A stretch of 16,857 nt of DNA. It comes from Candidatus Micrarchaeota archaeon. GTDB lineage: Archaea > Micrarchaeota > Micrarchaeia > Norongarragalinales > UBA8480. A model generated the notes under the pieces. The model did no database searches. It saw only the letters and a list, made by a program, of their open reading frames with translations, and was not told the DNA's origin. Positions 13,956 to 15,837 of the stretch are shown piece after piece. The stretch's first letter is position 1; the number at the start of each line of letters is the position of its first letter. The DNA lies in NCBI GenBank assembly GCA_043805855.1, contig JAZDHP010000046.1, positions 1-16,857 of the forward strand. The letters are read 5' to 3'. A program made the position numbers and the translations under genes.

Positions 13956-14014
13956 GCTTTAACAAAGCAACTTTTTCTCATTTTTGCTTTGTTAAATAAG
14001 TGCGACCGTCGGGA

Positions 14015-14049
14015 GGACCAGCCATCCTTCTAATCAAAGAAAGACAGTT
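14015..14049 (-). other. tRNA intron 2 (position 59/60, 35 nt, relaxed BHB motif)
   Basis: Exon helix is the T-stem, bulges are AA|A and CC|T, central helix TTCA/TGGT has 3 pairs plus a U-U mismatch, and the intron hairpin is CTGTCTTTCT/AGAAGGATGG. Confidence 0.8.
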
Positions 14050-14055
14050 TTTGAA

Positions 14056-14120
14056 TTCTCGAACACCCTTTTCTTTTTGAACCGTAAACGGCCTTTTTCT
14101 TTTTAAGAAAAAGGGGGTTT
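14056..14120 (-). other. tRNA intron 1 (position 53/54, 65 nt, BHB motif)
   Basis: Central helix CTCG (exon 48-51) pairs perfectly with intron CGAG. The 3-nt bulges are GG|A and AA|T. The intron-side helix is AAC/GTT extended by CCC/GGG. Confidence 0.88.
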
Positions 14121-14163
14121 CCCGAGCCTCTGCCTTGGCAAGGCAGTGTCCTACCAGGCTAGA

Positions 14164-15837
14164 CTACGATCGCGATCGCACTAGTAAGAGTATTATCGCA
14201 ACACAGAGTATTAAAAATATTGCTGGAAAGTACGGCTGCAAGGAATCCACTATTTGTAACCAAGAAGCGCCATTATTCGCATTCGCACTAGCAGATTGTG
14301 TAACAATTTGCTCGCCGTTTTGAACTGCAGTTGGCTCAATTAAAAACTCTTGCACAATTGAATAACCCTCAGTTGTAATGTTAACCTTGGCAGGCACTCG
14401 GCCTGCAGACGCATTTACAATAAAAGGAAAAACTAACTGTTTTTCCTCGCCGAGTGCAATAGAAAAGTTAACCTGTGTTGAACTATTTCTAGTGTTAAGA
14501 AGCGCAAACGCGTTGTTAAAAGCAACGTTGCCCGCGTTTTGCACAGTTATAATTATTCCAGTTGCATTTACGCGAATTTCCCTTATGCTCAACAGTGCAA
14601 CTCCTTGCACATCTCCGCTCTTGCGAGCAGTTAAGTTAACTTGCTTTTGTGAACTTAGAGAACGTACGATTATTGGGTAAGTGTAAACGAAATTGTCAGT
14701 TAAGTTAAGCGGCACGAGTAACTTCCACGCAAATACCTGCGTTTCGCCAGGTTGTATTACAATAAATTTACTCTTGTCGCCTATAATTGAAACTTCAACC
14801 GGCGCGTCAATTGCAATTGGATAAGCTGCAATTTTATCATTTTGAGAAGTTATTGAAACGAAAACCGTTTGAATTGAACCTTGAGTGACGGTTTCGTTTG
14901 AAACATTAAGCACAAGCAACGGCGGCCGCGAGAAATTGTCAATTGCTACAAAGGAAACTTCGTGCGACCGCTTAATTACAACTTTGGAAAGATCAATATT
15001 CCCCCGCGCTTCAAGTTGTTCAACAACATTATTCTGGTCAATTCCATTAGCGAATTTAAAATGCGTCGCGTCTAGCAAAACGCCTTCGTTGTAAGTTGGG
15101 TCAAAGGGATACCATTTGCTGTTAATTGCAACTTCCGCCCACGCGTGGCTATCCCATTTTTCACCACTGTAAACTAATCCCGCTGAGAAACGCGCGGGAA
15201 TACCTTGGCTTCTCGCTAGCGCGATGAACAAATGGCTAAATTCGTTGCAAACTCCTTTTCTCACTTCGAAAATATCCTGTGTGTTGAGAATTGCATTTTG
15301 GTAACTCAAATCATAAATAACATTATTGTGAACCCACTCTGACAACAACGCAGCTTTTTTCAACTCATTTTTCTCACTGCCGACAATCTCCACTGCCTTT
15401 GCGCGTATTTCTGGAGTTAGCAAGACAATTGAACTCTCTTGCGTATATCGCGATAAATCGCCGGTTGCATCGTCAAAACCAGCTTCGGGTTTAGCTGAAA
15501 CAACTGCGTCAATTGAAACTTCTTGCACTTGCCTAGCTGGGTCTAGAATAAATTTTAACTTTGAATTGCCAAACTCGTCGACGTCAGTTGTAAACGAAGG
15601 GCTAGCAGTAAAAGTAACTGACTGCGTGGCTGTGTTTTGAAAACCAAAAGAAGCAAAAGAAACAGACGCTGGGTTTTGGCCGTTTAAATCAACAACCCAC
15701 TTTAACTGAACTGAAGAAGTGGAAACGCCAACGTTTTTTGGCTCAACGTCAATGGCAAAAACCAACGTTGAAAAAAATAAACAAAACAAAAACGCTACAA
15801 ACACAAAGTGAAACAGTTTCACGGAATAAAATTTCAT
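14164..15837 (-). CDS. Secreted, C-terminally anchored transglutaminase-like (Cys-His-Asp) domain protein
   Basis: Signal peptide; WVHNNVIYD, GVCNEFSHLFIALARSQGIPARFSAG, HAWAEV and WYPFDPT catalytic motifs; Ig/CARDB-like beta segments (TVQNAGNV); C-terminal TM followed by RSRS. Confidence 0.92.
   Translation of the reverse strand: MKFYSVKLFHFVFVAFLFCLFFSTLVFAIDVEPKNVGVSTSSVQLKWVVDLNGQNPASVSFASFGFQNTATQSVTFTASPSFTTDVDEFGNSKLKFILDPARQVQEVSIDAVVSAKPEAGFDDATGDLSRYTQESSIVLLTPEIRAKAVEIVGSEKNELKKAALLSEWVHNNVIYDLSYQNAILNTQDIFEVRKGVCNEFSHLFIALARSQGIPARFSAGLVYSGEKWDSHAWAEVAINSKWYPFDPTYNEGVLLDATHFKFANGIDQNNVVEQLEARGNIDLSKVVIKRSHEVSFVAIDNFSRPPLLVLNVSNETVTQGSIQTVFVSITSQNDKIAAYPIAIDAPVEVSIIGDKSKFIVIQPGETQVFAWKLLVPLNLTDNFVYTYPIIVRSLSSQKQVNLTARKSGDVQGVALLSIREIRVNATGIIITVQNAGNVAFNNAFALLNTRNSSTQVNFSIALGEEKQLVFPFIVNASAGRVPAKVNITTEGYSIVQEFLIEPTAVQNGEQIVTQSASANANNGASWLQIVDSLQPYFPAIFLILCVAIILLLVRSRS
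14209..14217 (-). promoter_or_regulatory. Candidate TATA box for the tRNA-Gly gene, embedded in the upstream CDS
   Basis: TTTTTAATA on the minus strand lies about 36 nt upstream of tRNA G1, compatible with a short 5' leader. Confidence 0.35.

Follow-up and report, generated by a model that had tools for sequence, protein, structure and literature searches.

A tRNA gene whose T-loop is interrupted twice raises the questions of whether it is functional, in which order its introns leave the precursor and how they arrived there. Such a locus lies in a contig of the DPANN archaeon Candidatus Micrarchaeota, which we analysed over its whole length of 16,857 nt (the window). An earlier sequence-only reading had noted that the two halves of the T-stem are 107 nt apart, on which we agree from the sequence, and had explained the gap by two introns around a 6-nt micro-exon. 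We confirmed that the minus strand from 14173 to 14001 is a real tRNA-Gly(GCC) gene with two BHB introns.

A tRNA-Gly(GCC) gene with two introns in its T-loop

As had been anticipated, standard scans overlook this gene. ARAGORN found no gene in the window and only a truncated call at a lowered threshold, an Rfam scan of the window gave no tRNA match, and in the genome search the tRNA-Gly locus reached 20.7 bits, below the cut-off of 29. We used our own BHB-aware profile aligner, which scores introns by their BHB and whose profile comes from 30 intron-free tRNAs of a single genome of another family (G020). Unaided, the aligner recovered the junctions at 53/54 (65 nt) and 59/60 (35 nt) together with 21 of 21 stem pairs; its scores are at least 46 for real loci and at most 13 for noise. 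None of 200 dinucleotide shuffles of the 106 nt between tRNA positions 53 and 60 matched the real joint score of 77.0 (shuffle mean 52.1, maximum 73.3). The spliced form, which the earlier reading had singled out for checking, is a 73-nt product with a complete cloverleaf and all 21 stem pairs, and ARAGORN calls it tRNA-Gly(gcc).

Two other solutions were rejected. A BHB-blind alignment took the decoy GGTTCAAA as the T-loop and reached 19 of 21 pairs; this T-loop-like sequence lies inside intron 1, within 14066..14091 (-). A single intron of 100 nt would leave a non-consensus T-loop, and the aligner chose otherwise.

Table 1. Features of the tRNA-Gly(GCC) locus, in window coordinates.
Feature	Position	Strand	Remarks
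pre-tRNA-Gly(GCC) gene	14001..14173	-	173 nt; discriminator A73; CCA not encoded
Exon 1, tRNA positions 1-53	14121..14173	-	identical in G002 and G003
BHB1 central helix, exon strand (C48-G51)	14123..14126	-	pairs with 14061-14058
Intron 1, position 53/54	14056..14120	-	65 nt; BHB-aware aligner
Repeat module: pyrimidine tract and reverse-complement purine tract	14092..14114	-	10-bp hairpin
Repeat module: short spacer hairpin (14091-14082), then second purine tract	14066..14091	-	
BHB1 central helix, intron strand (CGAG)	14058..14061	-	4/4 pairs
Exon 2, micro-exon TTCAAA (54-59)	14050..14055	-	6 nt; same in G001, G002 and G003
Intron 2, position 59/60	14015..14049	-	35 nt; 10-bp hairpin, relaxed BHB
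Exon 3, tRNA positions 60-73	14001..14014	-	

The acceptor, D and anticodon arms are intact; exon 1 holds the acceptor 5' strand, the D arm, the anticodon arm with the anticodon GCC at 14140-14138, the variable loop and the 5' strand of the T-stem. The perfect BHB described for intron 1 is indeed present: the central helix CTCG/CGAG of BHB1 is Watson-Crick at all four positions and, with three intron-side pairs, makes a strict BHB, the exon-side pairs being G46-C56 and G47.U55. For intron 2, the earlier description of a relaxed BHB with a U-U mismatch was correct and incomplete. The central helix of BHB2, formed by bases 54-57 of exon 2 with 14020-14017, consists of the U54.U mismatch, U55.G, C56-G and A57-U (3/4 pairs), and the first intron-side pair is also mismatched (A.C), which had gone unmentioned.

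The surroundings of the gene showed further features. A 557-aa transglutaminase-like ORF (14164-15837, minus strand) overlaps the 5' end of the tRNA gene, its stop codon (14166-14164) falling among the initial 10 nt, and coding DNA must therefore contain the tRNA promoter; a sigma-70 promoter scan was set aside as unsuited to archaeal promoters. The first six bases of the tRNA are duplicated directly upstream (14179-14174). Downstream lie two hairpins: an imperfect one at about 13961-13993 and one formed by a perfect 26-nt palindrome (13955-13930), after which comes a T run.

Conservation of the gene and of its intron positions

Both intron positions are kept in 3/3 congeners, with intron lengths of 48/35, 48/35 and 117/53 nt. 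In G002 and G003, the exons are identical to those of the window gene; intron 1 has the same ends and a different body, and intron 2 has 26 of 35 bases in common with the window while its hairpin is kept with other letters. The third congener, G001, carries the 117-nt and 53-nt introns. Its position 49 is a C, and both T-stem base 65 and the BHB1 intron base are G; in the window, position 49 is a U and both partners are A. This covariation fits a partner switch of position 49 between intron and T-stem, although a single event is involved and G001 may have gained its intron by a separate insertion. The splice sites would be older than the split of the genus, with intron bodies that turn over.

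Outside the genus, one search returned 14 Gly(GCC) genes from other genera, of which seven are intron-free and seven have introns at 37/38, at 59/60 or in the D-loop; none of these 14 loci has a 53/54 intron. A narrow pattern of Gly(GCC) with a 53/54 insert occurs in 3 of 301 genomes of the class, all congeners, and gives little information on the distribution, since it missed G001, as did a second pattern. In a more distant family of the same class, a tRNA-Met(CAT) (L092, genome G106) with introns at 37/38, 53/54 and 59/60 has the double T-loop layout.

A dead tRNA filled by repeats, or an assembly artefact, could also explain the interrupted T-loop. Intron 1 does contain a repeat with 72 copies, and the assembly is incomplete. 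We nevertheless regard this explanation as very improbable, given the 21 stem pairs, the identical exons in G002 and G003 and the retention of both positions in G001. Moreover, another strain (run X1) supplied a 3.8-kb contig that covers 13998-14400 without gaps; of its 21 differences three fall inside the gene, all in intron hairpin loops (14034, 14103 and 14104), and the same layout with changes confined to intron loops argues against an assembly artefact. Two joints among the DNA contig matches were dismissed as distant short matches joined within one run. An intact Gly(GCC) gene elsewhere, which had been named as the sign of a pseudogene, was not found: the gene is the only Gly(GCC) among the 44 tRNA loci found in the 92%-complete assembly, and BLAST with the spliced form detected no second copy.

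Splicing machinery and tRNA set

The genome (G000; 1.03 Mb, 92% complete) fits the expected ARMAN/Micrarchaeota setting with a broad-specificity endonuclease. It encodes a single EndA of 388 aa, which we assign to the epsilon2 type by its match to ARMAN-2 EndA 4FZ2 (residues 9-388, 439.7 bits, E 9e-131). Y237, H252 and K283 align with the catalytic residues Y236, H251 and K282, as counted on the alignment, and Y162/K163 with Y160/K161 of the ARMAN-specific loop (ASL), residues described in the available part of PMC12397907. The closest relatives, with 84-93% identity over the best segment, are records labelled Candidatus Micrarchaeota. The ligase RtcB is also encoded; it appears as a two-piece match in one 960-aa open frame (C59:12806-15532, minus strand), as expected of an intein-sized insertion.

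Interrupted tRNA genes are the rule in this genome: 43 of the 44 loci found carry at least one intron, 31 carry two or more and a 59/60 intron was called in 31, with anticodon-loop introns misplaced by the aligner at about five loci (C31:251, C10:14050, C34:1248, C21:13265 and C60:2730), where isotypes are unreliable. Three further genes, Asp(GTC), Pro(TGG) and Leu(CAA), combine a 53/54 with a 59/60 intron; in Leu(CAG) this combination was seen in one aligner run only, the other run having merged the T-loop introns. Val(CAC) and Pro(GGG) have single 53/54 introns. ARAGORN reports 11 tRNAs in the genome, several of them mis-spliced, so genomes of this kind look tRNA-poor.

Several other loci are unusual. 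By eye, C10:14050-14313 (+) is a tRNA-Trp(CCA) with box C/D-like motifs in its 37/38 intron and a 133-nt 59/60 intron containing two opposed copies of the repeat module described below. A tRNA-Ile(TAT) at C17:8626-8361 (-) has three introns and represents the solution for AUA decoding that has been reported for ARMAN lineages. The tRNA at C60:2730-2976 (+), whose anticodon the aligner did not resolve, has several inserts and possibly nested introns. Nested introns may also be present in the 88-nt insert at the unusual position 56/57 of Lys(CTT) (C29:32452-32613, +) and in the 102-nt 53/54 intron of Pro(GGG) (C8:3524-3350, -).

Predicted order of intron removal

In BHB1, positions 48-51 are paired to the intron, which leaves the T-stem open, and U54-C56 are used as well. 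BHB2 uses 54-57, and its strict form also needs a closed T-stem that is joined directly to U54. The strict motifs are therefore mutually exclusive, because the T-stem is open in one and closed in the other; in addition, U54-C56 are common to both, and intron 1 physically parts G53 from U54. The sequence-only reading had argued in this direction, and part of the argument stands. The competition for bases 48-51 holds for 49-51, but not for 48, which lies outside the T-stem. Exclusion applies to the strict hBHBh' motifs, but not to the central helices, which occupy 48-51 and 54-57 and have no common base. The claim that intron 1 has to be removed and ligated first was overstated, as both central helices can be enforced together and the computed preference is small.

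According to constrained folding at 37 °C, BHB1 costs 3.2 kcal/mol in the full precursor and 4.4 kcal/mol after loss of intron 2, and BHB2 costs 4.7-5.1 kcal/mol in the full precursor and 3.3 kcal/mol after loss of intron 1. A path that starts at 53/54 runs through 3.2 and then 3.3 kcal/mol, the reverse path through 4.7 and then 4.4; the resulting preference for 53/54 first in the window gene is only about 1.5 kcal/mol, and gaps of 1-2 kcal/mol are within the error of the model, which leaves out the enzyme and base modification. First-step costs tie in the orthologues (3.9 vs 3.8 in G002, 4.4 vs 4.4 in G003), and the full precursors of Asp and Pro(TGG) reverse the ranking, with a lower cost for the 59/60 helix than for BHB1, if a motif lacking the exon-side helix is cut. 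Without constraints, the BHB2 helix stays near 0.01 in every state, so that a large share of the work must fall to enzyme binding, and BHB1 reaches at most 0.32.

On the basis of these models, 53/54 first is probably the preferred, though not a forced, order of intron removal. By inference from ARMAN-2, the precursor would pass through two rounds of cutting by the epsilon2 EndA and joining by RtcB. Bases 49-51 would first be paired with the 3' end of intron 1 in BHB1, with the T-stem open. With intron 1 gone and G53 ligated to U54, the T-stem could close and stack on the weak 54-57 helix, and both together would complete the motif for intron 2; the complementarity is seen, the succession of steps is what we infer. 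Motif quality would set this path.

A stricter version, in which intron 2 is unrecognisable until intron 1 has been cut out and the exons ligated, seems to us unlikely. In its favour, intron 1 stops the exon-side helix of BHB2 from stacking on its central helix, so that three weak pairs and the A.C mismatch are left, and enforcing both central helices costs 7.4 kcal/mol. The 59/60 helix of tRNA-Leu(CAG), which rises from about 0.01 to about 0.6 once the 53/54 intron is removed, points the same way, as does the relaxed ARMAN-2 substrate, labelled hBH in the available text, which for a 13-nt 59/60 intron would imply that the T-stem side is kept. Yet the 53/54 introns of Val(CAC), Leu(CAG) and Leu(CAA) lack exon-side pairs in the aligner scoring, so the enzyme probably accepts such motifs, and the full precursor of Pro(TGG) populates both central helices together (0.78 and 0.57). 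Some introns of C. merolae are removed in either order, according to the part of PMC3728597 available to us. At the other extreme, the motifs could be sampled independently and the enzyme would cut whichever it meets, or intron 2 would go first, the 6-nt exon possibly being released and then re-ligated. Central helices without a common base and the ties in G002 and G003 favour such a reading, and a BHB1-type motif also functions when the T-loop is uninterrupted, as the single 53/54 introns of Val(CAC) and Pro(GGG) show. It is nonetheless improbable, more so than the strict order, because both steps starting at 59/60 are dearer in the window gene (4.7 and 4.4 vs 3.2 and 3.3 kcal/mol) and, with both introns cut out ahead of ligation, a 6-nt piece would come loose that hardly any pairs hold in place.

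Dependent splicing of nested multi-intron pre-tRNAs of Crenarchaeota is said to have been described by Sugahara in 2007 and Tocchini-Valentini in 2009. The two-intron layout itself is not new, which the earlier reading had missed: the pre-tRNA-Pro(GGG) of ARMAN-2 (Candidatus Micrarchaeum acidiphilum) has introns at 53/54 and 59/60 (Fujishima et al., 2011, PMC3239211, Figure 1C). As far as the accessible text goes, both share the 6-nt exon in the T-loop, the epsilon2 EndA and the phylum; the ARMAN-2 gene differs in isotype and in motifs that are described as strict, whereas BHB2 of the window is relaxed, and other genes of our genome have the layout too (Asp(GTC), Pro(TGG) and Leu(CAA)). The same portion of text reports in vitro cleavage of a relaxed 59/60 intron by ARMAN-2 EndA and does not discuss the order of removal; further ARMAN double-intron genes, Gly included, may be in the supplements. 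Multi-intron pre-tRNAs of Cyanidioschyzon merolae are reported, in the parts available, to undergo sequential BHB processing by motif stability (Soma et al., 2013, PMC3728597; PMC3978253). Those motifs fold independently, in contrast to the window motifs, which overlap through positions 49-56. The accessible parts of PMC4390854 hold nothing on splicing order, and a term search of a preprint on Asgard archaea (bioRxiv 10.64898/2026.10.13.758758) gave no match for ordered or nested splicing. Four to five natural double-intron genes with differing predicted order in one genome form a clean substrate set, which bears on whether an epsilon2 EndA enforces an order on overlapping T-loop motifs; the ARMAN-2 enzyme can be obtained for such work.

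A near-identical intron in tRNA-Asp

The earlier reading overlooked that intron 1 copies a repeat present across the genome and that tRNA-Asp carries an almost identical intron. Compared with the 53/54 intron of tRNA-Asp(GTC) on contig C32, 60 of 61 bases are identical, ends included. None of the four relatives checked (G001, G002, G003 and G007) has a 53/54 intron in Asp, and the Asp copy retains an A that pairs with U49 of Gly and mispairs with C49 of Asp. The simplest reading of this distribution and of the misfit base is that intron 1 was recently copied from Gly to Asp at the same position; the direction is suggested by the absence of the Asp intron in four relatives, the Gly intron in 3/3 congeners and the Gly-fitted base.

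Transposition of tRNA introns in Thermoproteales was reportedly described by Fujishima et al. in 2010. Copying between tRNA genes of Thermoproteales is summarised in PMC4090602 and PMC4033280, to judge from the available excerpts, and the likeness lies in near-identical introns across isotypes of one genome; here, by comparison, one copy can be polarised (Gly to Asp) through congeners and a misfit base. The Asgard preprint (bioRxiv 10.64898/2026.10.13.758758) reports, in its accessible portion, next to none of this copying in Asgard (1.5% vs 28.3% in Thermoproteales) and still calls the arrival route of archaeal tRNA introns open. An intron gain with a readable direction is a rare case that bears on this route, and donor, recipient and direction can all be read here, in a genome with 43 of 44 tRNA loci found interrupted.

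The repeat module of intron 1

The body of intron 1 is a module made of a pyrimidine tract, a complementary purine tract, a short hairpin and a mirrored purine tract, the second purine tract (14078-14066) mirroring the first. In the genome, 72 of 152 purine-hairpin sites fit the module, 56 inside tRNA genes and 16 outside, seven of the latter at most 72 nt from a tRNA gene. Identical modules with their flanks at the contig ends C20:14452-14472 and C31:78-98 probably represent overlapping contigs, so one outside copy may be counted twice. Some 40 nt separate another copy (C10:28990-29012) from the endA stop codon that precedes it. Among 55 copies in tRNA genes, 50 are in sense and five in antisense orientation. 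The third tract fits the mirror of its own copy better than that of another copy (9.61 vs 8.29; 0 of 2000 permutations), a permutation result that overstates the difference because the 71 copies are related and non-independent. One exact module pattern occurs in 81 of 301 genomes of the class, and its reversed control in none of them; 30 sampled matches comprised 12 in tRNA introns, five near a tRNA and 13 unassigned.

Its tract order resembles the class II purine-motif intrastrand triplex repeats of bacteria (PIT, BoxC and TMECO), described by Holder et al. (2015, PMC4666352) as a pyrimidine tract, a loop, a complementary purine tract, a short loop and a mirrored purine tract. The letters of the module are consistent with this architecture, including the reverse-complement and mirrored purine tracts and the short span. 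Like PIT, BoxC and TMECO, it is found in both orientations and comes and goes between relatives. Unlike them, it is A/T-rich, has a longer spacer that is itself a hairpin and lies mostly in tRNA introns; the G/C-rich TMECO consensus given in PMC4666352 does not match it. The module would work like TMECO but is not TMECO. The word tRNA is absent from the main text of PMC4666352, and a literature search, with most subscription papers outside its scope, found no triplex repeat in archaeal tRNA introns.

A Ser(GCT) intron in each of G000, G002 and G003 contains the module variant of the window as well, and a Met intron of G002 has it in reverse. The same variant at several tRNA introns and in both orientations suggests movement of the module as DNA. 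We tentatively propose, as a possibility well short of an even chance, that introns of this genus are being gained and rebuilt now at the DNA level, with the triplex-type module entering and leaving existing introns in either orientation and entire module-bearing introns copied to the matching position of another tRNA gene. If so, the 53/54 copy from Gly to Asp would give this process a date and a direction and would have produced a new double-intron T-loop, its donor-fitted base would be tolerated by the epsilon2 enzyme, and archaeal tRNA introns would have in the module their first concrete vehicle of arrival.

A further module copy, along with decayed purine tracts, is located at C63:10310-10400, where it comes immediately after TGATGA and CTGA, each present twice, which we take to be box C/D-like motifs.
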